Below, piece by piece: positions 13,604-53,998 of a stretch of DNA of 64,000 nucleotides (positions are counted from its first letter, which is position 1; every line of letters starts with the position of its first letter). The stretch is taken from assembly GCA_963674755.2 (NCBI GenBank), contig CAXXVS010000001.1:704001-768000 (forward strand), given 5' to 3'. This DNA is from Desulfobacterales bacterium (GTDB lineage Bacteria; Desulfobacterota; Desulfobacteria; Desulfobacterales; UBA5852). The notes under the pieces were generated by a model, which did not search any database, had not been told where the DNA came from, and saw nothing but the letters and a program-made list of their open reading frames with translations. The position numbers were made by a program, and so were the translations under genes.

Positions 13604-13657
13604 GTCAGGGGAACCGGTCTGCCCCCTTTTTATCTTCAGCCTCATGGAGAAAACGCC

Positions 13658-13899
13658 ATGTTAAACGGCATCCATTTTATACTGACTTACACCTGCAACT
13701 TCGAATGCGACCACTGCTTTCTTTCTGCGGCCCCCTGATCCGTGGCGGCCCGGCCGAGCTGGCCAGAGTGTGCGGCCTGACGCCGGAACCCGGCTACATC
13801 GACGCCTGCCATCTTTGCTTTCTGACCCGCAAGGCCGCCATTGGTCAGTATCCGGAAGCCCTGGCGCCGAAGCAGGTTTATGGCCCCGATCTCAGTTGA
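13658..13899 (+). pseudogene. Radical SAM gene with large internal deletion
   Basis: MLNGIHFILTYTCNFECDHCFL (CxxxCxxC) joined out of frame to a C-terminal GYIDACHLCF...LAPKQVYG segment. Confidence 0.8.
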
Positions 13900-18649: not shown

Positions 18650-18717
18650 CCGCAACATGTCAACGTACCAGACATCGATCGCTTCGCGTTCGATGCAGGT
18701 AGTTTCCGACATTATAC
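18650..18717 (+). other. attC site 1 (R' G>A variant)
   Basis: CCGCAAC...TACC.GACATCGA/TCGATGC.GGTA...ATTATAC. Confidence 0.75.
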
Positions 18718-18720
18718 TTT

Positions 18721-19383
18721 ATGAACAATATGAAAACATTTATTGGAGTATTAATAATTATGTCGTTGTTTTCATTCACGAATGTTTTTGCGGCAACACC
18801 TGAACAAAAATTCTGGAAATGGTTCGTGAAAAATCAAGGCATATTATTTGAATTTGAAAAAAACAGAGAAAGGATATTTGACAACCTATCCTCTGAAATG
18901 AAAAAGGTACATCCTGATCTTACCTTTGAATTTGGGCCGATACAGGAATCCGGTAAACGAGAGCTTGTTATTAGTGCAGGAGGTATTAAAGACGCTTTTC
19001 CATTCGTTGAGTCTTTGTATGATTCGGCACCCAAACTTTCCAATTGGATTATTATTAAATTCCGGCCCAGGCGAAATCCCCTAAATGACTTAGAATTTGG
19101 TGGCAAGACGATAAAGGCATCTGAAGTTTATTATAAAATGTTTAAAGACCAAGAGAAAGTCGGCCTAATAATTTTTCTTGATGGATATAATGATGCTGAA
19201 AAAGATATTTACGGAAATATTGGTTACCTATTTTTAGACGAGGCATTAGGGGAATATGATATTGAAATGAAAGTCGGCTTCATTGAGTTTCACGGAAGAG
19301 AATCAAAATATTTTGAAGGTTCTCAACCGCTGAGTGAATTGGCTGAACATTTTGACGAATATTTTAAAAATACAATGAATTGA
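18721..19383 (+). CDS. Cassette gene: exported hypothetical protein
   Basis: Signal peptide (VFA-A), FWKWF, RELVISAGG, LDEALGE; bounded by attC sites. Confidence 0.85.
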   Translation: MNNMKTFIGVLIIMSLFSFTNVFAATPEQKFWKWFVKNQGILFEFEKNRERIFDNLSSEMKKVHPDLTFEFGPIQESGKRELVISAGGIKDAFPFVESLYDSAPKLSNWIIIKFRPRRNPLNDLEFGGKTIKASEVYYKMFKDQEKVGLIIFLDGYNDAEKDIYGNIGYLFLDEALGEYDIEMKVGFIEFHGRESKYFEGSQPLSELAEHFDEYFKNTMN

Positions 19384-19384
19384 C

Positions 19385-19445
19385 GTATAACATTTTGCTG
19401 CACGGGAGCGCAAAAAGCGCGCGCCCCGTGAGCAATGCGTTATAC
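19385..19445 (+). other. attC site 2
   Basis: GTATAAC...TTGCTGCACGGG/CCCGTGAGCAA...GTTATAC. Confidence 0.92.
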
Positions 19446-19460
19446 AATCATAGTGATGGT

Positions 19461-19781
19461 ATGAAAAAGACCACAAAAATATGCCCTGATTGTGAAAGGG
19501 AAAACCCTACTGCCCAAAAAAAATGTCAGTTCTGTGGTGCTGTTTTACACTACGGAAAGGATTACTACAAATTAAAAAGTTTTCTCTCGTAGGTCACAAT
19601 TTTCGGCATTTTAACAGGGTGTCTTTATACAAGCCTTTCAAAATCTAAAATTATCGATCCAGCTTTTATTGATAATATTCCGAATTGGGTTTCTTATATA
19701 TTTTGGGGATTTGTAGCTATTGGCGTTCTATGTCGCTTATTAGTTGGCATGGCGGATGTGGACGAAACTTTTATTGAATAA
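19461..19781 (+). pseudogene. Cassette gene: zinc-ribbon + 2-TM protein with in-frame TAG
   Basis: CPDC...CQFC, TAG at 19590, frame stays open through two hydrophobic segments to TAA at 19779. Confidence 0.7.
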
Positions 19782-19787
19782 AACTCT

Positions 19788-19879
19788 GTATAACCTTTCG
19801 CTGTTTCTGAATGTCACGGTATGCAATACTTCGCTTCGCTCAGGCAAGCCGCGCCATCAGAAAAGCTTAGCCGTTGGGT
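19788..19879 (+). other. attC site 3
   Basis: GTATAAC (complements GTTATAC 19439)...GCTGTTTCTGA/TCAGAAAAGC...GTTGGGT. Confidence 0.88.
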
Positions 19880-19890
19880 GAAAAAACAAA

Positions 19891-20721
19891 ATGAACCAAG
19901 ATATCAAATCTATTCTCTATAATATTTTAGGTGGTATAATAGTCTCTGTCCTCACAGTTATTTTTATATCTCTCCGAAAACAATTAAAAAGTTTTCAACT
20001 ACATAGACTTTTAGGATTCTGTTCCCATTCAGGGGACGAACCGAAAATCGTTTATGGTCAACTTGCCTTGCCAAATGTTTTCAAACAAAACGGGCAGGTT
20101 ATTACACATCCCTATGTAAAGCCACCAAGAAACGGTGGAGCAATTCCACTTCAAGGAACATATTCAATAACCCATCCTGTAAGCGAGTGTGAAGTTCGGG
20201 CATCTACATACCTTACTAGTATGCTTTCAAACATAAAAAACACTCATCCACAATTAATTTCTGATGTCGATGCAAATGCAGTCTTAGACAGTAATCTATT
20301 TGCGTTAGGTGGACCAGGGTCAAATTACAAAACAGCAGATATTCTTGCATCACCAGCAAATTTATTTATTCAAATGGCGCATAATGGTTTTTCTTTAATC
20401 TCAGGGGAACATCTGCCCTTTGTCTGTAACCAAACAACTGACTATGGTTTTATTCTACGCATAACTCCCCCTCAATTCCCTAAACGTTCGTGGATTGCAT
20501 GTTCAGGTTTAGGGGAATGGGGTACAAGCGGATCTGCTTGGTTTCTTGCCAACAAATGGAAGTATTTGATGAGAAAAATATCACCTTTTGCCTATTACAT
20601 GGGAATTATGCCTATATGTGATTTTGTTGCAATTATTAAAATTACTCGTGGGCAAGATCAGTCAGCTGAAATAGTCGATGCATACCGAAAATCAGGTAAA
20701 ATGATAAAACGTATAAAATAA
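19891..20721 (+). CDS. Cassette gene: N-terminal TM + unknown alpha/beta domain
   Basis: 276 aa; NLFALGGPGSN, DYGFIL, SGLGEWGT. Confidence 0.85.
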   Translation: MNQDIKSILYNILGGIIVSVLTVIFISLRKQLKSFQLHRLLGFCSHSGDEPKIVYGQLALPNVFKQNGQVITHPYVKPPRNGGAIPLQGTYSITHPVSECEVRASTYLTSMLSNIKNTHPQLISDVDANAVLDSNLFALGGPGSNYKTADILASPANLFIQMAHNGFSLISGEHLPFVCNQTTDYGFILRITPPQFPKRSWIACSGLGEWGTSGSAWFLANKWKYLMRKISPFAYYMGIMPICDFVAIIKITRGQDQSAEIVDAYRKSGKMIKRIK

Positions 20722-20722
20722 C

Positions 20723-20784
20723 ACCCAACATCGGCATTCAGTGGAGCGCAAAAAGCGCGCGCCCACTGATGCCGGGCGTTAGAT
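20723..20784 (+). other. attC site 4
   Basis: ACCCAAC (complements GTTGGGT)...CGGCATTCAGTGG/CCACTGATGCCG...GTTAGAT. Confidence 0.93.
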
Positions 20785-20802
20785 ATCAGGTGTTAATTTA
20801 AA

Positions 20803-21903
20803 ATGTTGCCAAATCAAACATCTATTAAAAATTACAACATCTATACCTACACATTTCTTGATGATTTATCTTTTATAAAAGATCCACACGAATATTTTGA
20901 ACATGAAACAAAAGAGACAATTGAAAATGCTATTGTTTTAGTAGGTGAAAAATTTAAGGAACATGGGTGGGAAGGTGATGGTTCAATTGGAATAATTTGG
21001 CTCCCACCGTTTATAGAAGAGGGAATAGAGGACACTTGGGGAACATACGTTTGGCATGTTAAACAAAATAATGACGGAATATCCTTTATAGCATCTTATG
21101 AACCATTAAATACAAAAAGGCTGGGACAGAACGAGTTTGGACTTTCAAGCGTACCCGGGAGAACGTTAACACCTATAAGCATTATCGAAACCGACGTAGA
21201 GTGGTTTTTGAAAGCAATTGATGGTGTCGAAAATAATTTAAAGGAATCAATAGAATTTTTAGCGATCACGTCATCACATGGTGTTACTGAGACAATTAAA
21301 GCAAATACGAACATTCATTACCAAAGCGTTTTGGTTAGATATTTTCAAGAATTTCTGGATGAGTGTTACCTGCAAATTTTAATTGATGCAATTGAAAATG
21401 GCAATCCACACAAAATTAAATTAAGAAAGTCCCAAATAAAAATTGACCTCGCTTCACATATGCCGGAACCTGATGATGAAGAGGATGATATTGTTGATAC
21501 AGCACTTACTATTAGATTTTTTATAGGTGATATGTGGAAAGCCTATAAATGGGAGCCATTTAAAACCAAAATGGATATGCTGTTTAAAAGTATTGATTAC
21601 AATTTGGATAGCACTTTTTCATATGAAATTAGAAAGCATGTAATTATCAGGAATTGCATGCAGCACCATGAAGGAAGTCTAGATCAAGATTCTTTAAAAC
21701 AGCTTGGAAGACAAAGCATTGAAATGAAGTGTGCCGGTGGAATATACCACATAAAAGTCTGGAAGCCTCTTAAAATTGAAGCAGAAGAAATTTATTCGTT
21801 ATGTGATTTACTTAAGAAATTTGTCGAAGATTTCCATAGACATATTAAGCGCAGGGTGCCTACAGTACATTACATTTCAAGAAAAACCCAACCTGAAACT
21901 TAA
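20803..21903 (+). CDS. Cassette gene: hypothetical protein with HEPN-like RxxxxH motif
   Basis: 366 aa; RNCMQH in a helical C-terminal half. Confidence 0.8.
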   Translation: MLPNQTSIKNYNIYTYTFLDDLSFIKDPHEYFEHETKETIENAIVLVGEKFKEHGWEGDGSIGIIWLPPFIEEGIEDTWGTYVWHVKQNNDGISFIASYEPLNTKRLGQNEFGLSSVPGRTLTPISIIETDVEWFLKAIDGVENNLKESIEFLAITSSHGVTETIKANTNIHYQSVLVRYFQEFLDECYLQILIDAIENGNPHKIKLRKSQIKIDLASHMPEPDDEEDDIVDTALTIRFFIGDMWKAYKWEPFKTKMDMLFKSIDYNLDSTFSYEIRKHVIIRNCMQHHEGSLDQDSLKQLGRQSIEMKCAGGIYHIKVWKPLKIEAEEIYSLCDLLKKFVEDFHRHIKRRVPTVHYISRKTQPET

Positions 21904-22016
21904 GCGGACCGGGAATAGCGGTGCTTTTTTTAAACAATTTACTTGCGTGTTTTTAAATAGTTTTTTACAACCTTTGTCAGGGCTTGTTCCCCGGCCCGCT
22001 TAGTTCATAGTTATGT
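21886..22016 (+). other. attC site 5 (long)
   Basis: ACCCAAC...AACTTAAGCGGACCGGG/CCCGGCCCGCTTAGTT...GTTATGT. Confidence 0.88.
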
Positions 22017-22032
22017 AAAAAGGAAACTATGC

Positions 22033-22419
22033 ATGTCCGATACTTTATTAGGTGTAATTATTGGAGGTCTAATAGCAAGCATTGGCCCATTAATTACTCT
22101 CAAAATGAACCATACGAAATGGAAGTGTGAAAAAAAACTCGAATACCTTAAGGAAAAGAGAAACAAGTTAGAAAAAGCATGTTCTGGAACACTAACAAAA
22201 ATTGCGGAAGGTATACTAAAGAATAATTATTCGTCCGATATGATGAGTGATATTGATTTTTTATTTCCTGAGAAGGTTTCAAAAGCATTTGAAAATCTGA
22301 TGAAAGAAGATGATAAAACAGAGCTTAAAATGCAAAAACATTATTATCTTATTGCTCGTGCTATGAAACAATCCATCGCAGAATTGGATGAAGATATTTG
22401 TAAAATTATATCTACATAG
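22033..22419 (+). CDS. Cassette gene: TM-anchored helical hypothetical protein
   Basis: 128 aa, AGGA RBS; cassette bounded by GTTATGT and ACATAAC. Confidence 0.85.
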   Translation: MSDTLLGVIIGGLIASIGPLITLKMNHTKWKCEKKLEYLKEKRNKLEKACSGTLTKIAEGILKNNYSSDMMSDIDFLFPEKVSKAFENLMKEDDKTELKMQKHYYLIARAMKQSIAELDEDICKIIST

Positions 22420-22454
22420 TTTAATACGATTTATTTATGGTGTACTCATAATGC

Positions 22455-22652
22455 ACATAACAATCTAATCAACCGGAACCTGAACAGGGTCGCATCTTAA
22501 TTATTAACTATTGACATCTGCTCTATATCAGTTCGTTATACCGACGGACGATTCCGAAATAGAGTGAGGCAAATAGAACGTCGTATAATTAGGATTCGAC
22601 CCTCTTTATCTCCCAAACTATGTGTAGCGTCTGCTTATGGCCATCGTTATAA
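22455..22652 (+). other. Disrupted attC site 6, split by a type A element
   Basis: R'' ACATAAC at 22455 and R' GTTATAA at 22646 separated by the 22487-22602 element. Confidence 0.7.
22487..22602. mobile_element. Type A palindromic miniature element, copy 1
   Basis: GGGTCGCATCTTAATTA...TAATTAGGATTCGACCC; near-identical to copies 2 and 3. Confidence 0.8.
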
Positions 22653-22667
22653 CTTAAAGGAAATAAC

Positions 22668-23162
22668 ATGGATATAGGAAAGCTACTGTCAGATTTAAAA
22701 GGGAAGGTATTAGATGCCTCCCATTTTGATCTTCTAAGGCATGCATACGATCTGCAAGAGCAAAATATCGTACAACTTAAGAGCAATAATGCCGCGTTAA
22801 AGGAAAGCAACGATTTATTAAAAGACAAGCTTTCTTCTTACGTTAAAAAAATTGAAGATCTCGAAGAGGAAAATTCAAAACTTACCAAGCAAGTCATATC
22901 GCAATCAAATTCTAAATCAGAAAAAATTGTTTTGTCTGATAGTGCAATAGCAGTGCTAAAAAAGATCGTACAAGAAGATGTCACTGATTTTTATCAAAAT
23001 GCCATTATTGATGTTCTGGGGATGGGTAGAATAGCGACCCAAGCTGCACTTGATGAATTATCTGAAAAGGGCCTTATTGATTGCATGTCAGCAAGGCCTG
23101 GGTATGGCTTGCATTATCATCTAACAAGCAAAGCGAAGAAAGCGCTAACCAGTGTAGTATAG
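22668..23162 (+). CDS. Cassette gene: coiled-coil + winged-helix-like protein
   Basis: Heptad-rich N-half; ALDELSEKGLI...YHLTSKA wHTH-like tail. Confidence 0.8.
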   Translation: MDIGKLLSDLKGKVLDASHFDLLRHAYDLQEQNIVQLKSNNAALKESNDLLKDKLSSYVKKIEDLEEENSKLTKQVISQSNSKSEKIVLSDSAIAVLKKIVQEDVTDFYQNAIIDVLGMGRIATQAALDELSEKGLIDCMSARPGYGLHYHLTSKAKKALTSVV

Positions 23163-23206
23163 TTATAATACATAAAGATTGAAACGACCTAAATAGGAAA
23201 GTATTT

Positions 23207-23329
23207 GGGTCGCATCTTAATTATTAACTATTAACATCTGTCCTATATCAGTTCGCTATACCAACTGACGATTTCGAAATAGAGTGAGGCAAATAAAACA
23301 TCGTATAATTGATAATTAAGATGCAATTC
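23207..23329. mobile_element. Type A palindromic miniature element, copy 2
   Basis: Same left end and core; right end TAATTAAGATGCAATTC degenerate. Confidence 0.8.
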
Positions 23330-23377
23330 TCTTTATCACCCTTTTTATGAATAATATGAATAAAAGGAGAAATCGGC

Positions 23378-23641
23378 ATGTATGCAATGTTATCACTTGA
23401 TTTAGACAGAAAAACCACAAAGGAACAGCGTGATAAGTTCTATGCATATTTGAAGAAGGAACTGTGGACAAAGATGCCGAAAGTGACTACAACATGGTAT
23501 GCTGACTTTTCAACTGGTGTTACGGAATCTGGGGTTATTTCAACAACAAAAGCTGACGTTGCAAATGCTGCGAAACATGCTGGTGTCACTGCATATGATG
23601 CTGTTGTTCATGTTGGACCATCTAAACCAACACCATTCTAA
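23378..23641 (+). CDS. Small hypothetical protein (possible VapD/Cas2-like ferredoxin fold)
   Basis: 87 aa, AGGAG RBS; MYAMLSLDLD start; fold guess is weak. Confidence 0.75.
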   Translation: MYAMLSLDLDRKTTKEQRDKFYAYLKKELWTKMPKVTTTWYADFSTGVTESGVISTTKADVANAAKHAGVTAYDAVVHVGPSKPTPF

Positions 23642-23705
23642 AGAAAGGCCAAATAGGAACCTGAATAGGGTCACCCATTAAAAGACTCGTCAAAGGTGTT
23701 CTGAG

Positions 23706-24623
23706 ATGAAAGAAACATGTCCAATCTGCAATAACCAAATGAACTACACTTCGATTGGTAGCCGGGATGCTTCCTCAATAACTTGTGAGATATGCGGTGA
23801 ATATATTTTAACAAGAACAGCTTTAGTGAATTTAAGAAGCTCTAATTTGACGCCACGCCAAAGAGCGAATATTTATGGATGGTTGAGGATGAATCCGCAT
23901 TTCGAAATATCAACCGCTAATATTGATAGCCTTGAGAGACTCCCGAATCCATCCTTTCATGACAGAGCAGATAATTTGTTGTTGTATTTTGAAAATTTGA
24001 CGTCATACGCTGGGAAAAAACTCAATAAAAACAATTCATGGCTGGGTTTCTCTTCGAGTCTTAATCAAGATGAACTTAATGAAACAATTTCTTTCCTTGA
24101 ATCTGTAGGTCGTATTAGCCAAGAAAAAGTTGCTCCAAATCACCTTATCAAAATTGAGCCACAAGGGTGGTCTCATTTAGAAAAGATCAAGAAGATAAAT
24201 GAAGATAGTAATCAAGGATTTGTTGCAATGTGGTTTTCTGAAGATATGCAGAAAATTTACGATAGTGTTATATCAAAAGCAATTCTATCAGCTGGTTACT
24301 CGCCGCATCGTGTAGACCAGCGTGAGCACAATAATAAAATTGATGATGAAATCATTGCACAGATACGGAAAAGCCGGTTTGTTATAGCAGATTTCACTGG
24401 GCATAGAGGTGGTGTTTATTTCGAAGCTGGTTTTGCTAAAGGCCTAAATATCGAAGTGTTTTGGACATGTCGAGAAGATGATCTCGAAAATTTGCACTTT
24501 GACGTGAGGCAATATAACTGCATCACTTGGGAAATCGATAAATTGAATGAATTTGAAAATAAAATCAAAAATAGAATAGAAGCAGTTTTAGGGAGGGGCT
24601 CAGGACCAGGTATCGCCTTTTGA
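23706..24623 (+). CDS. Zn-ribbon + nucleoside 2-deoxyribosyltransferase/TIR-like protein
   Basis: CPIC...CEICG; FVAMWF, IDDEIIAQIRKSRFVIADFT..RGGVYFEAGFA, LHFD. Confidence 0.8.
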   Translation: MKETCPICNNQMNYTSIGSRDASSITCEICGEYILTRTALVNLRSSNLTPRQRANIYGWLRMNPHFEISTANIDSLERLPNPSFHDRADNLLLYFENLTSYAGKKLNKNNSWLGFSSSLNQDELNETISFLESVGRISQEKVAPNHLIKIEPQGWSHLEKIKKINEDSNQGFVAMWFSEDMQKIYDSVISKAILSAGYSPHRVDQREHNNKIDDEIIAQIRKSRFVIADFTGHRGGVYFEAGFAKGLNIEVFWTCREDDLENLHFDVRQYNCITWEIDKLNEFENKIKNRIEAVLGRGSGPGIAF

Positions 24624-24663
24624 CAATTTTTATATAAGGGAACCTGAATAGGAGAAAGTGTTG

Positions 24664-24786
24664 GGGTCGCATCTTAATTATTAACTATTGACATCTGCCC
24701 TATATCAGTTCGCTATACAGACCGACAATTCCGAAATAGAGTGAGGCAAATAAAACATCGTATAATTACTAATTAAGATCCGACCC
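24664..24786. mobile_element. Type A palindromic miniature element, copy 3 (most intact)
   Basis: 25-bp terminal inverted repeats with 3 mismatches. Confidence 0.82.
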
Positions 24787-24987
24787 TCGTTCCCTCTCCA
24801 GTGCATCAGAGTGCACTTTGTACTGTTTTAAGACGCTGTTTAGAGCACCAAATCATGCCCCGTAAATTGATGAGATTTGTTACTGATTATAAACTAATAT
24901 CTCAATATTTATACATTTCACGGAGAGAATAAAAAATCAGTTTTGCGGTCTAGGGCACAGGAAATGTGGCATTTGCCTTAAAATTTC

Positions 24988-25009
24988 GGTTCTCTAAACT
25001 AGGTTAGAA
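24988..25009 (+). other. Second, different attI-like site
   Basis: CTCTAAACTAGG/TTAGAA with no attC hairpin upstream; GTTAGAA complements TTCTAAC at 25454. Confidence 0.5.
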
Positions 25010-25022
25010 CAGCAAAATAGGA

Positions 25023-25448
25023 TTGAACATAGTGGATTGGAAAAAGTTCATAGAAGACTTATTAAAGTATGCAATTGTAATCGCCCCTGTTATTCTTTCT
25101 GCAGTTTTGGGCTATCTTTTTGCAAAATTTAGGGCCTTTCGTGAAGAAAAACAGAAAGCTTATAGTGAACTGCTACCTATCATAGTCAAGATGCTATATG
25201 ACCCTCAACCTGAAATCGAATCGGAATTTAGTAGATCATTAATGAAATTATGGCTCTATGCAAACAAGCGCGTAGCGAAAAAGTTAGATCATGCTATTGG
25301 ACTTTTTCATAAACCTGATAAACGAAATGAAGTTACCAAGGCTCTTCAAGAGGCGATAGTCGAAATGCGCAAGGATATACAAATTTTGCCTTGGCAAAGG
25401 TTGAAGCCTGATGATGTTCGTCATCTTTATACTAAAATTTCAAAATGA
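25023..25448 (+). CDS. Cassette gene: TM-anchored helical hypothetical protein
   Basis: 141 aa; LWLYANKRV...AIVEMRKDI. Confidence 0.8.
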   Translation: MNIVDWKKFIEDLLKYAIVIAPVILSAVLGYLFAKFRAFREEKQKAYSELLPIIVKMLYDPQPEIESEFSRSLMKLWLYANKRVAKKLDHAIGLFHKPDKRNEVTKALQEAIVEMRKDIQILPWQRLKPDDVRHLYTKISK

Positions 25449-25453
25449 AGTTG

Positions 25454-25520
25454 TTCTAACATTTTGCTTCACCAGATTCGGGCCAAAAAGCGGCCCTCTC
25501 TGGTGAGCAATTCGTTATGG
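25454..25520 (+). other. attC site
   Basis: TTCTAAC...TTGCTTCACCAGA/TCTGGTGAGCAA...GTTATGG. Confidence 0.92.
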
Positions 25521-25530
25521 ATCTAAAGAG

Positions 25531-25682
25531 ATGACAGATACTAAAACCACAGAATCGCAGGAAGGCGAATCTACAAAATTCGAGTCAACTCCAAATATTG
25601 GAATAGAGAAAGAGACTTATGGAATAGAACCTAAACATTTATCCACCCAAAAAGATGACAAAAAATGCAAGGAAGGTCTAAT
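25531..25682 (+). pseudogene. Cassette gene truncated by a type B element
   Basis: ORF starts just after GTTATGG and runs into the 25683 palindrome. Confidence 0.55.
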
Positions 25683-25744
25683 GGGGTCAAGTCTGCCCAT
25701 GACTCAATTAAATTTCAAGATGAGTCATGAGCAGACTTGACCCC
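25683..25744. mobile_element. Type B 62-bp palindromic element, copy 1
   Basis: GGGGTCAAGTCTGCCCATGACTC-N16-GAGTCATGAGCAGACTTGACCCC. Confidence 0.82.
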
Positions 25745-25780
25745 AAGACCACAAGAATAGACCCTAAGAATGCAAAAAAT

Positions 25781-26173
25781 ATGACCAAACGAAATATTGT
25801 ATATTTAATCATATCCGTTATTATCTTTCTGCCTCTTTTAAGCTATGCCATTAATCCATTACACAAGTCGCCTGACAAAATAAAAAATAAACTTATTAAA
25901 AAAACTAAAATAGGTTTTACAAAAGAAAAGGTGAAAGAAATCGGGAAGGCCCAGCTGAATTTAATTTTGAGAGAAGATGAGTATGGACCTCCTGATAGAG
26001 AAATGGTGATCCCTTTCAAAGATATCCTTCATACCTACTTAGAAGCTGAATTAGGATCTCATTTTTCACATGATTACTTTGTTTTTAGAACCTATGTTTA
26101 TGCCTATTGGGTGTTCGATAGAAATGATAAACTTATAGATATATTGATCTATAAAGAAACTGACGCCCTATAA
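25781..26173 (+). CDS. Cassette gene: exported hypothetical protein
   Basis: Hydrophobic N-terminus; YAYWVFDRNDKLIDILIYKETDAL; followed by attC. Confidence 0.75.
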   Translation: MTKRNIVYLIISVIIFLPLLSYAINPLHKSPDKIKNKLIKKTKIGFTKEKVKEIGKAQLNLILREDEYGPPDREMVIPFKDILHTYLEAELGSHFSHDYFVFRTYVYAYWVFDRNDKLIDILIYKETDAL

Positions 26174-26181
26174 AAATTCAG

Positions 26182-26243
26182 ACATAACCTGCTGCTGGTT
26201 GGGACGCGCAGGGGCTGCGCGCCCCACATCAGAGGCGCTAAAA
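26182..26243 (+). other. attC site ending in a GCT core
   Basis: ACATAAC...GGGACGCGCAG/CTGCGCGCCCC...GCTAAAA. Confidence 0.8.
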
Positions 26244-26620
26244 AAAATTTTCTCAATATCACTTCCCGAGATGGGGGTTTGCGGATTAAATACCCGGTAT
26301 TCCTCATAACGTCTCTGCAGCACAGGCCATTAACCACCATGCTCAACGGCACCCACTTTTTACTGACCTACACCTGCAACTTCGAATGCGACCACTGCTT
26401 TCTGTATTGCAGCCCATGGTCGAAGGGGACGTTTAGCATCGGTCAGGTGACGCGGGTGCTGGACGAGGTTCGGAAGATCGGCACGGTGGAATGGATTTTT
26501 TACGAGGGCGGCGAACCGTTTCTCTTCTACCCGCTGCTGTTGGAGAGTGTCCACCGGGCGGCGGAACGCGGGTTCAAGGTGGGAATCGTGACCAACGCCT
26601 AAACGTTGAGGCAAGGTGAA
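26241..26620 (+). repeat. ~380-bp direct repeat, copy 1, with radical SAM 5' stub (26339-26602)
   Basis: Near-identical to 30423-30804; CNFECDHC and YEGGEP motifs, then a premature stop. Confidence 0.92.
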
Positions 26621-26625
26621 GTAAT

Positions 26626-26687
26626 GGGGTCAAGTCTTCCCATGACTCAATTAAATTTCAAGATGAGTCATGAGCAGACTTGACCCC
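26626..26687. mobile_element. Type B 62-bp palindromic element, copy 2
   Basis: One substitution versus copy 1; both preceded by TAAT and followed by AAGACC. Confidence 0.82.
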
Positions 26688-26696
26688 AAGACCCCT

Positions 26697-26715
26697 CATA
26701 ATATTATAGTTGGAC
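26697..26715 (+). other. Putative attI core, copy 2
   Basis: CATAATATTATAG/TTGGAC; 15 nt identical to 18324-18338. Confidence 0.7.
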
Positions 26716-26722
26716 TAAAAAA

Positions 26723-27331
26723 ATGCCAAATTGTGATTACTATGGAACAATTGATGATCATGGAGATATATTAGAATTTCTATTTTCCGAAAATTTATGT
26801 GATATATTTGAATTGTATTCTGAGGTTGAAAGGCCTTTAAAAAAATTCAATTCACCTGAAGAAGTTCTAAGTCAATTTTCAAGATGTTATACAACAGGAA
26901 AAAAATGGCATACTGTTTACTTGCAGCTTTATGTAAAAGGGGCTGGACCAGATTTTAAGCCAACACTTAAAGAGTTGGTGCCTGAAAAAAATGATGGAGC
27001 TACTTTCAAATATAGGGCAGAAGGATGGGGATTGATTCAATTATATCTTTCTACGACAGTTGATAAGATATTACGTGATTCGCACTCAAATCATAATACT
27101 GAAAAACGAGCTAATAAATGGTCAAGTATCTGTAGTGAGTTAGAGGATCCTTCACTTTGGGACTTTTCAAAAATTACGAAATTCTCATCGCGGCTTAATC
27201 GGCAAATAAGAAAGAAGAAGGTGGCAAAATTAAATAGCCGCGTGGTGCTACCAGGCGGTTTAAAAGCATGGGATGAAGGGTGTACTCTGGCTCCATATCA
27301 TCCGGATAAGCATGAAATTGAAAGACTGTAA
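26723..27331 (+). CDS. Cassette gene: hypothetical protein
   Basis: 202 aa; EGWGLIQLY, SHSNHNTEKRA; bounded by GTTGGAC and GTCCAAC. Confidence 0.85.
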   Translation: MPNCDYYGTIDDHGDILEFLFSENLCDIFELYSEVERPLKKFNSPEEVLSQFSRCYTTGKKWHTVYLQLYVKGAGPDFKPTLKELVPEKNDGATFKYRAEGWGLIQLYLSTTVDKILRDSHSNHNTEKRANKWSSICSELEDPSLWDFSKITKFSSRLNRQIRKKKVAKLNSRVVLPGGLKAWDEGCTLAPYHPDKHEIERL

Positions 27332-27344
27332 ATTGTTAATCAGA

Positions 27345-27412
27345 GTCCAACAATTGGTTCCAGGTGACGCATTCCGCTGCGCTGCATGCGCCCCTGAACC
27401 ATAGCGTTGGGT
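27345..27412 (+). other. attC site
   Basis: GTCCAAC...TGGTTCCAGG/CCTGAACCA...GTTGGGT. Confidence 0.92.
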
Positions 27413-27427
27413 CAATAGGAATAAGTA

Positions 27428-28297
27428 ATGTTAAAGAAATTCGTAGATGGACTAATATTTGGTGCAGGCTTCGGCATTACATTCGTAGCGATTTTGTTCG
27501 CTTCCATATATTTCATATTACCAACTTTAGCAAAGAAATCATTTAATTCTTTAACTCCAACATCTCAAAACACCTTAGCAACTGTGCCAGCTATCGAGGC
27601 ACCAAAAACTCGCTATCTTGGTTCCACCAACATATCTTCAAGTGGTTTTACTCAAAAAGGAATACTGGCTACCGGTGATGGAAAAATAATAGGTAGTGCT
27701 ACAACCAACGGGAAGCTCCTCAATGGCCTAAAACTCCGATTAGCATTGAACGGTAGTGTTTATAGCTCTTGGGCTACCACTGATTTAGCAGGCGAATATA
27801 CAGTTAAAGTGCCTTACGGTGACTATATTATAGACGGTTTTGAATTTGATAAAACAACGGCTGATGAATTGTTGCCGAATATGATCTTACATCCTCAAAA
27901 CCCGCATTCGAGTAACAAATTTCAAGTAAATTCGTTGTCAGAGGGACGAGGCCTAACCTTTAAATTTGTAAATCCAATTATGAAGAAAATCAAAAAAAGC
28001 AAATTTAGTTCCGACGAGGATGTCATACTTGAATGGGAAGATTACCCAAATGCATCAAGCTATACTTTGCAAATTGATGAGAAATCTGATCCCTATTCTT
28101 GGGCGAGCGACCACTTATTTGAATGGTCTGATAGACCTGAAGTTTCAAAGTCGCATATTAACTTAAGTGAATACAAAATAAAATTGAAGCCTGGGAATTT
28201 TTATACAATAGATATTAGCGCCAAAGACAAAAACGGGAATTGGATATCAGAAAGTGCAAGAAACTACTCTGGCTATGATTTCGAAATTATAAAATAG
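27428..28297 (+). CDS. Cassette gene: membrane-anchored beta-sandwich protein
   Basis: N-terminal TM; ATTDLAGEYTV and LEWEDYPNASSY FN3-like patterns. Confidence 0.85.
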   Translation: MLKKFVDGLIFGAGFGITFVAILFASIYFILPTLAKKSFNSLTPTSQNTLATVPAIEAPKTRYLGSTNISSSGFTQKGILATGDGKIIGSATTNGKLLNGLKLRLALNGSVYSSWATTDLAGEYTVKVPYGDYIIDGFEFDKTTADELLPNMILHPQNPHSSNKFQVNSLSEGRGLTFKFVNPIMKKIKKSKFSSDEDVILEWEDYPNASSYTLQIDEKSDPYSWASDHLFEWSDRPEVSKSHINLSEYKIKLKPGNFYTIDISAKDKNGNWISESARNYSGYDFEIIK

Positions 28298-28307
28298 AAT
28301 TCATGCG

Positions 28308-28362
28308 ACCCAACATTGGGCTGTTGCCGACTCGGTTCCCTCGCGGCAAAGCTCTGGCGCTA
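28308..28362 (+). other. Last attC site, R' box interrupted by a group II intron
   Basis: ACCCAAC (complements GTTGGGT)...GCTGTTGCCG/CGGCAAAGC...GCTA then intron. Confidence 0.85.
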
Positions 28363-30420
28363 TCGCGCCGAGCAAAGCTCGGCGCATCTTGCAGGGTGTA
28401 AGTCCCTGCCGGGAGAGAGTCGGCAACGGCTTTCTGTAAGGGTTAGCCCCCCACCCGTATCGAGCCTTGGGTCCATGGCGGAGATGCTTTCTGATCATTG
28501 TAAGTGCTGGAAGCCGCTGTATTGGCTGGAAACGAGCCGCGACCCGGGAGACCGGTGGCATTCGCGGATGGTCTCACCCCACTGAACGAACAATGGAGCA
28601 GAGGTATCGAACAAGATGGGCTAAGCGTAGGCAGAGAATCCTGTAGGCCGTAGGGGAGACCGCGCTCCCTGAAGAGCTGGTACAGCTTCGAAATAGCAAT
28701 TGCGGACGCCGAGGGTTTTAACGTGCACCGAAGGCAACACAGAAGCATCCGTTACAGGCGAGGATGTGAAGGTCCGCCGGAGTCATCAGGCCGTGGCATG
28801 CAGGAAGAGATGCGCTGTAGAACTCGGGAAGCCCCAGAGGCTCCTGTGGGGAAGGAATCCGCAGGTGGGAGCGGAGACGCTCTACATGCCGATGGGGTGT
28901 CTTATCAGGCATACTACTCAGCGGTGGGGAAAGCCCACTACACGGGGAAGGACCTGACGGAAGTACGCAGCCTGCAAAGGAAACTCGTACCGGACAAAGT
29001 CGGGCTGGAGCAATACGAGCCAACCTCCCTGCAGGGGATAGCAACGAAGGCGGAAGTACGAACAGCACACCGTTTTCAGGATCTGTACCGGTGTCTAAAC
29101 GCCCGATTTTTGGCAGACTGCTGGAAGGATTTGAACAAAGATGCGGCCAGCGGAATCGATCAAGTGACGGCGGAGGCCTACGAGGAGAATCTTGAGGCCA
29201 ATATCAAGGCACTGGAAAAGCGCCTGAGACAAAAGCGGTACCGCGCCAAATTGGTGCGGCGATGTTACATTCCTAAGGGCAATGGGGAAGAGAGGCCACT
29301 TGGCATACCGGCACTTGAGGACAGATTGTTGCAGTTAGCGTGTGCCAAGATTTTAACATCGATTTTCGAATCGGATTTTGTAGAGACCAGTTACGCTTAT
29401 CGTCCCAAACGAAGCGCCAAAGAGGCAATAGAAGATTTGCAGTTCAATCTTCAGTTTGGGAAGTTTGGCTACATTGTCGAGGCTGATATACAAGGCTTTT
29501 TCGACAATATTGACCATGACTGGGTTTTACGGATGCTCCGGGAGCGGATTGATGACGCGGCGTTTCTAACCCTGCTCGGCAAGTGGCTGAAGGCTGGGGT
29601 ACTGGATACGGATGGTAAGGTGATTCATCCGGAGTCGGGAACGCCGCAAGGCGGGAGCGTATCGCCGGTACTGGCAAACGTATATCTGCATTTTGCTCTG
29701 GATCTGTGGTTTGAAAAGCGTGTGAAGGCGCAGAGTTGTGGTGAGGCGTTTATTCTCAGGTACGCCGATGACTTCATATGCGCCTTTCGCTATCGCGATG
29801 ACGCCGAGAGGTTCTATCATGAGCTGCCCAATCGGTTGAGCAAGTTCAAACTCGCGGTGGCACCCGAGAAGAGCGAAATGATACGTTTCAGCCGCTTTCA
29901 TCCAGGGATGCAAAGCCGGATCATGTTTTTAGGCTTTGAGGCCTATTGGATGGAAGACCCCAAGGGTGCGGTTAAAGTGAGACTGCGAACGGCCCGCAAG
30001 AAGCTGCACGATGCCTGCCGACGCATCAAGGGGTGGATAAAGGAGAACCGTCATCTGAAGGGGGCAAACTTTATAAGAGCGCTGAACCGGAGGTTGCAGG
30101 GCCATTACAATTACTTCAATGTGCCCGGCAACTTGAATTCGTTGTGGCGTTTTTACCGCTGGTCAGTGGACTGTGCATTCAAATGGCTGAACCGGCGAGG
30201 GGGAAAGCGTAAAAGCTTTACCTGGAAAGTGTTCACACGCGCCATAGACCGGTTAGGTGTCGCCAAGCCCCAAATGGAGATGGTCAACCGAAAACATCGC
30301 GTGTTTGTATAGTGCAAAGGCCTTACGCGGAAGCGAGTACAACCGAGGAACCGGATGCGGGAAAACCGCACGTCCGGGTCTGTGCGGGGGGCGCTGGGTA
30401 ACCGGCGTTCCTACCGTGAG
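28363..30420 (+). mobile_element. Group II intron (bacterial class E-like); ends +/-2 nt
   Basis: TCGCG 5' end with hairpin; domain V GAACCGGATGCGGGAAAACCGCACGTCCGGGTC; domain VI with bulged A; RT ORF; empty site visible at 26237. Confidence 0.9.
28723..30312 (+). CDS. ltrA: Group II intron reverse transcriptase/maturase, no En domain (true start probably near 29020)
   Basis: ASGIDQVT, YIPK..GEERPLGIP, DIQGFFDNI, GTPQGG, RYADDF, GHYNYF. Confidence 0.93.
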   Translation: MHRRQHRSIRYRRGCEGPPESSGRGMQEEMRCRTREAPEAPVGKESAGGSGDALHADGVSYQAYYSAVGKAHYTGKDLTEVRSLQRKLVPDKVGLEQYEPTSLQGIATKAEVRTAHRFQDLYRCLNARFLADCWKDLNKDAASGIDQVTAEAYEENLEANIKALEKRLRQKRYRAKLVRRCYIPKGNGEERPLGIPALEDRLLQLACAKILTSIFESDFVETSYAYRPKRSAKEAIEDLQFNLQFGKFGYIVEADIQGFFDNIDHDWVLRMLRERIDDAAFLTLLGKWLKAGVLDTDGKVIHPESGTPQGGSVSPVLANVYLHFALDLWFEKRVKAQSCGEAFILRYADDFICAFRYRDDAERFYHELPNRLSKFKLAVAPEKSEMIRFSRFHPGMQSRIMFLGFEAYWMEDPKGAVKVRLRTARKKLHDACRRIKGWIKENRHLKGANFIRALNRRLQGHYNYFNVPGNLNSLWRFYRWSVDCAFKWLNRRGGKRKSFTWKVFTRAIDRLGVAKPQMEMVNRKHRVFV

Positions 30421-30422
30421 AT

Positions 30423-30804
30423 AAAAAAATTTCTTCTCAATATCACTTCCCGAGATGGGGGCTTGCGGATTAAATACCCGGTATTCCTCATAACGTCTCT
30501 GCAGCACAGGCCATTAACCACCATGCTCAACGGCACCCACTTTTTACTGACCTACACCTGCAACTTCGAATGCGACCACTGCTTTCTGTATTGCAGCCCA
30601 TGGTCGAAGGGGACGTTTAGCATCGGTCAGGTGACGCGGGTGCTGGACGAGGTCCGGAAGATCGGCACGGTGGAATGGATTTTTTACGAGGGCGGCGAAC
30701 CGCTTCTCTTCTACCCGCTGCTGTTGGAGAGTGTCCGCCGGGCGGCGGAACGCGGGTTCAAGGTGAGAATCGTGACCAACGCCTAAACGTTGAGGCAAGG
30801 TGAA
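30423..30804 (+). repeat. ~380-bp direct repeat, copy 2, with radical SAM 5' stub (30523-30786)
   Basis: Near-identical to 26241-26620. Confidence 0.92.
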
Positions 30805-52534: not shown

Positions 52535-52590
52535 ACCTTCCGGCGGATTCCATCAAACCCAAAACCCAATTGATCTCGATAAGATAATGT

Positions 52591-52752
52591 ACCTTGCGGC
52601 ACTCCTTTGCGACCCACCTGATCCAGCAGGGTTACGACATCCGGTCTGTCCCGGAATTGTTGGAACACAAAAGCATCAAAACCACCCAGATTGATACACA
52701 CGTTCTCAATCGCGGTGGGCAAGGGGTTTTAAGCCCAACCGACAATCTTTGA
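52591..52752 (+). pseudogene. intI: Second integron integrase C-terminal remnant
   Basis: [53 protein letters not shown]; catalytic Tyr changed to Asp. Confidence 0.9.
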
Positions 52753-53487: not shown

Positions 53488-53549
53488 GTATAACAAAGCG
53501 TTAGCAGCGAAGCGCAAAAAGCCGTGCCCGCTGAAAAGCGGCATTATAC
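53488..53549 (+). other. Degenerate attC
   Basis: GTATAAC...CAGCG..GCGCAAAAAGC..CGCTG...ATTATAC; same loop as the attC sites at 19385 and 20723. Confidence 0.7.
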
Positions 53550-53682: not shown

Positions 53683-53778
53683 TTACGGAAACGAGTACCA
53701 TTGAGGAACCCGCTGCGGGAAAACTATACACCGGGATCTGCGCGGGAGGCGTCGGGTAACCGTCGTTCATAGTGCGAC
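53683..53778 (+). mobile_element. Decayed group II intron 3' end (domains V-VI)
   Basis: CGAGTAC..GAGGAACCCGCTGCGGGAAAAC...GATCTGCGCGGG...GGGTAACCG.CGTTC aligns with 30323-30420. Confidence 0.8.
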
Positions 53779-53998
53779 CCTGTAAAATTTGCCAATCCCG
53801 GAAGAGCACGCCTATGCATGGGGGGGCAAGAACTTGGCCCAGGGGTTGCCGGCAGGGAATCCGGCAAGGGTCGATGCGCAAACCTGTTGGGTAAACCGGA
53901 ACATTGGCGGGAATAGAGGGAGCCGCAGGGGCCAGGTCTGCACTATTGGGAAATCATAGCTGTGGAGCGTGTGGACCGGGCTCTCCCCTTACATCTAT

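Follow-up and report, generated by a model that had tools for sequence, protein, structure and literature searches.

The locus described here raises the question of what kind of intron can occupy the recombination site (attC) of an integron cassette, and whether it is located there through targeting or by chance. The window, which is the whole 64,000-nt stretch of DNA analysed (G000:C1:704001-768000, from a Desulfobacterales bacterium), contains a cassette array spanning approximately 18700–30800. Within this array, a complete group II intron of 2059 nt with the terminal sequences TCGCG...GAGA lies at 28363–30421 on the plus strand. A complete intI gene is located on contig C2 of the genome, and the window carries intI fragments only. 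We consider it likely that the intron represents an endonuclease-less, IIB-type (class-E-like) lineage specialised on integron attC sites, which would enter the top strand after GTTR by EBS1 pairing, has undergone a compensatory change of its core, and is still mobile.

The attC that holds the intron (28308–28362, plus strand) consists of an R'' box (ACCCAAC, 28308–28314), an L-box hairpin (28320–28352), a spacer, and an R' box (GCTA, 28359–28362). It matches the architecture R'' (RYYYAAC), 5-nt spacer, L-box hairpin with an extrahelical base, and R' (GTTRRRY), except that GCT replaces GTT. The fold of the site on its own is not significant (z 0.23); the attC was recognised because of this architecture and because three further intron-free copies of the same attC family, all with GTT, are present in the genome. 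The first-pass annotation had placed the insertion on the top strand directly after GCTA in an attC R' box, and the same two observations support this placement. The attC belongs to an upstream cassette gene (27428–28297, plus strand), whose 289-aa product has no Pfam match.

The segment that forms the 3' exon (30422–30804, plus strand) resembles a cassette and includes a truncated radical SAM gene; no attC of its own was recognised. A second, intron-free copy of this segment is located at 26239–26620 (98% over 383 nt) behind a different attC (26182–26240), the two occupying 26182–26620 on the plus strand. This place had been described as an empty allele at 26237. The intron-free copy is indeed present, but its attC is a different one, and the site differs from the restored filled site by 1-nt and 2-nt indels at the start of the segment. 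It is thus an inexact empty site, and because of the indels we rejected it as proof of the intron boundaries. The window contains three truncated copies of one radical SAM gene start (13651–13722, 26279–26602, and 30463–30786), two of which follow attC sites and begin with a non-canonical GCTA. A 72-nt palindromic repeat (TAATGGGGTCAAGTC...GACTTGACCCC) is found at 25679–25750 and 26622–26693; more than 15 further copies, often clustered, are present in the genome, and the repeat is MITE- or REP-like. A 138-nt repeat (22477–22614, 23197–23334, and 24654–24791) is situated between cassette-like genes where attC sites are expected, and its first copy directly follows an R''-like start. The decayed domains V and VI (DV/DVI) of another group II intron (53686–53790) are located downstream of an intI C-terminal fragment (52585–52749), a cassette gene, and an attC near 53490–53548.

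All features of the intron lie on the plus strand. Domain I is approximately 470 nt long and matches the Rfam group-II-D1D4-6 family at 28681–28786, and the Rfam alignment places EBS1 (UAACGU) in the Id3 loop at 28719–28724. The J2/3 linker is UUA (28902–28904), with U as the γ nucleotide. The RT/maturase ORF (28924–30312) lacks an endonuclease domain, and a Pfam search of the intron ORF gave no match to an HNH endonuclease. Its frame is open from 28723, through DII and DIII, and the conserved part begins at about 29005. The putative GTG start at 28924 yields 462 aa, as in the relative L021; no ATG is present at the place where the sister introns start, and many homologues are annotated at about 500 aa. 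We also considered a conserved ATG near the domain I end as the start codon and rejected it, because this ATG is out of frame in the close relative L009. DV (30348–30380) has the triad AAC (30349–30351) opposite GGU, an AC bulge, and a 5-nt loop (GAAAA). DVI (30384–30421) contains a candidate bulged A at 30413, 9 nt from the end, and a 4-nt 3' tail, GAGA. An intact RT ORF and DV/DVI had been noticed at first sight, and both were confirmed: the protein matches Pfam RVT_1 (E 1.9e-30), carries YADD, and shows a weak GIIM match, and DV/DVI folds well (z −4.9). The DV/DVI of the window falls below the Rfam Intron_gpII threshold, and that of L009 passes it. In four runs, the summed contig depth at the ribozyme ends (28310–29085 and 30250–30443 of the window) is approximately 10–60 times that over the ORF; this excess fits many ORF-less or diverged relatives and is not a copy number.

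The exact boundaries were derived from homologues. Among those found in genomes (79 loci, from the best 80 of 107 matches), the close ones start with cGTT[A/G]TCGCGCC and end with CCTACCGYGAGA followed by any base. TCGCG (T at 28363) aligns without gaps to GTGCG of the sister introns. After GAG, A follows in 19 of 20 aligned 3' ends, and all four bases occur at the position after this A. The ends had been proposed as TCGCG and either GAG or GAGAT; the 5' end stands, and the alignments place the 3' end at GAGA, the last A being 30421. GAGAT was rejected because the T varies among homologues and disagrees with the R'' box of the downstream cassette. A GAG end combined with a 6-nt RTCGCG start was ruled out by the R'' boxes of L022 (TGCCAAC) and L079 (GCCCAAC) and by the EBS1 register. 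Both R'' boxes need a G in the exon; therefore, a boundary shifted by one base, with the purine inside the intron, is excluded.

With TCGCG..GAGA removed, the restored R' box and the R'' box of the next cassette downstream are exactly complementary in five of six tests (L022, L088, L079, L012, and the first L021 intron, whose 5' flank was not seen), and 6 of 7 bases match in the sixth (L065). L011, L019, and L030 have no downstream attC and are outside this test. The γ-γ' pair is Watson-Crick in all 13 sisters with both parts seen; therefore, a γ U would require a terminal A. Among the matches listed for run X1, which may be the source sample, 10 contigs part from the window sequence just past 30421 and 4 just past 30422; none of the contig joints listed skips precisely the intron, and no RNA run is listed among the sequencing runs that contain the sequence. 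Because the R''/R' complementarity, EBS1 register, γ-γ' pairing, and contig breakpoints agree, the intron was fixed at 28363–30421, and the predicted spliced junction is GCTA joined to TAAAAAAA. Two exceptions at the 3' end were found: L030 ends with GAGG, and a second, ORF-less L022 intron has no GAGA at the expected spacing.

The insertion sites collected from homologues share the position found in the window, on the top strand after GTTR of an attC R' box. GTTR immediately precedes 25 of 26 5' ends (23 genome loci), and the remaining one lies in tandem behind another copy. Metagenomes scanned for a pattern internal to the intron gave at least 121 loci, including the duplicates L121/L122 and L108/L150, and in 103 of these at least 121 loci the intron is preceded by GTTR. 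The attC calls were made by eye from the architecture, since whole-flank fold z-scores are often not significant; z-scores of 120–146 nt flanks had been tried as an attC caller and were rejected as too blunt. The 26 genome sites comprise 15 full attC, 4 partial, and 7 non-attC sites. Sixty metagenome loci were viewed. The 55 consecutive scorable sites among them, which include two duplicate pairs, comprise 40 clear attC, 3 likely attC, 2 sites after a tandem intron end, and 10 non-attC sites. Of the five others, four had been picked as exceptions: two are attC sites (ATTA or GCTA), one is a partial site, and one lies after another intron. The fifth was too short to score. About three quarters of the viewed insertion sites are attC R' boxes entered on the top strand. 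Besides the window copy, GCTA targets were found in L127/L174, L177, and L094. In L094 (G032:C28), a TCGCG 5' end directly follows an apparent CRISPR repeat-spacer unit, at GCTA, near the contig end. L038 and L128 are different introns of the lineage in a common non-attC target, TTTTTCTACAG.CTCGTTA, which we presume may be the end of an insertion sequence. In L117 and L180, TCGCG introns lie at or just past the 3' end of other group II introns.

The GTTR preference can be explained by EBS1, which pairs with RCGTTR: because its first U can pair with either A or G in position −1, GTT[A/G] is preferred. In the window, EBS1 (UAACGU) pairs with IBS1 (GCGCTA, 28357–28362) at five of six positions, with a C·A mismatch at −3. 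EBS1 covaries with the target in relatives, TAACGG occurring with CCGTTR (L022, L050, and L039) and TAACGC with GCGTTA (L021 and L026); the EBS1-target pairing of L025 retains one mismatch. All 10 relatives checked at non-GTT sites (L028, L031, L037, L042, L044, L047, L066, L078, L087, and L227) have a different hexamer in the EBS1 column, and five or all six of its bases pair with the flank. The sequence UAACGN of EBS1 thus gives a base-pairing rule that is testable or reprogrammable.

The rest of the flank is free. Copies of one intron have unrelated bases at −7 to −13 and +1, and no conserved IBS2 was seen among the copies in one MAG. Because these positions are free, a second determinant would be needed, and the attC hairpin is the obvious candidate. 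However, the insertion site is not an attC in 7 of the 26 genome cases and in 10 of the 55 metagenome cases, so the hairpin is not obligatory. These sites suit another explanation, in which the 6-nt IBS1 alone directs insertion and the attC excess arises from selection or transcription, R' boxes being frequent, transcribed, and harmless RCGTTR sites and other insertions being purged or silent. Approximately a quarter of the sites are non-attC yet keep GTTR (L015, L016, L018, L019, L030, L063, and L090), some insertions are apparently in coding DNA (L107 and L130), and only 3 of the 8 copies in one MAG are in full attC sites. Nevertheless, RCGTTR is far more common outside attC, occurring 69 times in the window with 3 occurrences recognised as R' boxes within the 26 kb read, and the attC share of insertions is still about three quarters. 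The excess also holds across many phyla and samples, and three of the four TCGCG 5' ends in the genome are in full attC sites. Targeting by IBS1 alone is therefore improbable, and we retain the combination of EBS1 pairing and hairpin.

The catalytic core of this subclade is unusual. By comparison with the sister introns, four core positions have changed together: the intron starts with U1-C2, J2/3 is UUA instead of RGA, the DV triad is AAC instead of AGC, and the 3' end is GAGA instead of GAY. The subclade is nonetheless multi-copy, and this set of changes is new here. J2/3 is TTA in 14 of 14 aligned TCGCG members and GGA or AGA in 17 of 17 sisters and in L087. In DV, AAC stands opposite GGU where the sisters have AGC opposite GAU, the G·A pair being flipped, and the GAGA tail of DVI has one base more than GAY. 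The group II consensus (GUGYG..AY, G in J2/3, and an AGC or CGC triad) is thus not matched by UCGCG..GA, UUA, and AAC. In group II introns, the first base interacts with the penultimate one, and a base triple links the G of J2/3 to the G of the triad. In the present introns, U1 accompanies a penultimate G. We infer that U1 and the penultimate G, γ U and the terminal A, and J2/3 U and the triad A are compensating pairs. A literature search, with most subscription journals outside its reach, found no account of such a rewired core or of these ends.

An odd core may also be that of a decayed, dead ribozyme, spread passively by IntI shuffling or DNA recombination. The window genome would fit such decay, as only one of its four TCGCG 5' ends, that in the window, belongs to a full copy, the others being those of an ORF-less copy of 850 nt (89%) and of two 5' fragments, and the DV/DVI score below the Rfam threshold points in the same direction. 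ORF-less forms are also present in L022 and L079, and ORF-skipping joints were found in three of the four runs. However, the four changes are common to introns whose RTs are 62–82% identical and whose ORFs are intact. Eight copies occupy different sites in one Desulfosarcina MAG and two are present in D. widdelii; the eight copies argue that the rewired core is functional. Passive cassette transfer would preserve the 3' flank, whereas the 3' exons are unrelated; the junctions are exact to the base, EBS1 and IBS1 covary, and reinsertion in tandem is observed. The tandem copies, in L079 and L133, are possible because the 3' exon is free. A dead ribozyme is accordingly very unlikely, and multi-copy exact insertions suggest that an active intron performs self-splicing and retrohoming.

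The exact 5' pattern was found in 2 of 60 related genomes; therefore, the element is patchy. The wider family is large: of 7999 proteins scored, 4010 match at E <= 1e-100, not all of them belonging to this subclade. Sister introns with ordinary ends (approximately 47–58% RT identity) also insert after GTTA with EBS1 TAACGN. Among 11 sister sites, 7 are clear attC (L026, L033, L039, L040, L041, L054, and L058), 1 is a probable attC (L053), and 3 are non-attC (L038, L051, and L055). Judging from these sister sites, attC targeting probably predates the odd ends. A chimeric remnant was found in an attC of the window genome (L088 near 14055, minus strand; G000:C2:2330070), where a GCGCG-type class-E-like 5' end is fused to internal pieces of a second intron type, that of L091.

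The insertion process can be envisaged from these features. Introns without an endonuclease depend on single-stranded DNA (PMC4424553). As the present one has none, its RNP would reverse-splice into single-stranded top-strand DNA, probably at the replication fork. EBS1-IBS1 and the attC hairpin, which ends approximately 10 nt upstream, would together replace EBS2-IBS2, as class C uses a hairpin. The co-oriented intron would be transcribed with the array and could splice out cleanly. The IntI crossover is G^TT, and the insertion is located 3 nt past it and leaves GTT intact. Since GTT is kept past the crossover, the intron would stand first in the downstream cassette and might be carried along with it. 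The most complete form of this proposal is a widespread, mobile clade with a naturally rewired triplex (J2/3 U opposite the triad A and swapped end contacts), which homes to attC via EBS1 and the hairpin, keeps the site usable for IntI, and moves in cassettes as intron and as ORF-less derivatives; we regard this whole combination as a tentative proposal with slightly less than an even chance of being correct. With the concerted changes of J2/3, triad, and ends, this mobile clade provides a naturally occurring test of the catalytic triple helix common to group II introns and the spliceosome. In addition, the GUGYG..AY rules and the Rfam DV/DVI threshold can miss such introns, which are probably under-annotated in environmental integrons.

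The class of the intron can be judged from its RNA and protein. The RT is 37% identical to that of an S. meliloti pSymB intron and belongs with it to the same Rfam D1D4-6 family; we take pSymB-type introns to be class E. The absence of an endonuclease, the 5-nt DV loop (GAAAA), and the RNA size are class-E-like traits that are also shared with class F, and the loop is described as common to classes E and F (PMC3753933). The α' element, which in class E is at the end of the DId3 stem-loop with an extra DId3 bulge, could not be placed with covariation in the aligned relatives. Class E is a likely assignment. It had also been the proposal of the first-pass annotation, and it fits the RNA features tested.

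The same annotation had suggested a lineage other than class C targeting the top strand, and the RNA features and insertion geometry agree that the intron is not class C. A class C intron on the top strand would resemble the Enterobacter cloacae case cited in PMC7923331, an earlier top-strand IIC insertion. The insertion just downstream of a hairpin, the unconserved IBS2, the lack of an endonuclease, and GsI-IIC RT as the best PDB match are all in keeping with that view. However, LtrA (4e-35) and the Thermosynechococcus-type maturase 6me0 (8e-33) match about as well as GsI-IIC RT does (E 2e-38). Instead of CGC, the triad reads AAC (AGC in the sisters); EBS1 pairing extends over 6 bp; and the long domain I, of approximately 470 nt, matches Rfam D1D4-6 together with that of non-attC sisters. 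A class C origin is hence scarcely credible, and the class-E-like reading is kept. The phage RT L222, initially taken as a class C reference, was dropped because it did not behave as class C.

The comparisons with known systems that follow are based on the accessible portions of the cited papers. Bacterial class E (IIE) introns likewise have no endonuclease, an IIB-like RNA of approximately 670 nt without the ORF, and a 5-nt DV loop, and EBS2-IBS2 is apparently dispensable in them (PMC3753933 and PMC3552965); it reportedly has no role in IIE/IIF splicing in vitro (PMC3753933), which agrees with the unrelated bases at −7 to −13 seen here. The window intron differs from them in having UCGCG..GAGA, UUA, and AAC, whereas its sisters keep GUGCG or GCGCG..GAY, RGA, and AGC. 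Those portions of PMC3753933 and PMC3552965 make no mention of attC targeting by class E, and the literature search, most subscription journals being beyond its reach, found no class-E-like lineage homing to the attC R' box. Truncated class E introns in a CALIN are already known: H.ha.F1/F2, which are oriented like the cassettes and have attC-like structures upstream (Sonbol and Siam 2021, PMC7923331). Compared by description, their 5' truncation means that they define no class E insertion site. Lineage-wide attC targeting, EBS1-R' pairing, and an altered core are not reported in the accessible text of PMC7923331. The first-pass reading of the site and lineage is supported; the exact 3' end, EBS1 targeting, the core changes, and the precedents in PMC7923331 were absent from that annotation.

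Another known case is UHB.I2, a CL1 intron located immediately after an attC in cassette orientation with the ends UUGCG..GU (PMC7923331). Like the window intron, it is a non-C intron in cassette orientation with a U start and a penultimate G; unlike it, its RT is class CL1. A second, unrelated full-length intron in the window genome (L091:1291-3550; G000:C2 near 1974290) is situated directly after an attC-like GTTA. It starts with TTCGC, ends with GGT, shows 31% RT identity, matches Rfam D1D4-7, and has a chloroplast-like appearance. Its similarity to UHB.I2 suggests that, within one genome, unrelated introns have converged on the same site.

The IIC-attC introns (S.ma.I2 type) enter R'' (TTGT/T) on the bottom strand and run against the cassettes; they have a 3–4 bp EBS1 and a CGC triad (PMC7923331 and PMC4424553). 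The window intron resembles them as an endonuclease-less RT intron in integron or CALIN attC sites, beside a DNA hairpin, with occasional non-attC targets in its lineage. In contrast to them, its target is the top strand just past GTTR of the R' box, and it is co-oriented with the cassettes and has a 6-bp EBS1 and an AAC triad. The attC site thus provides a niche for more than one intron class, at both of its ends.
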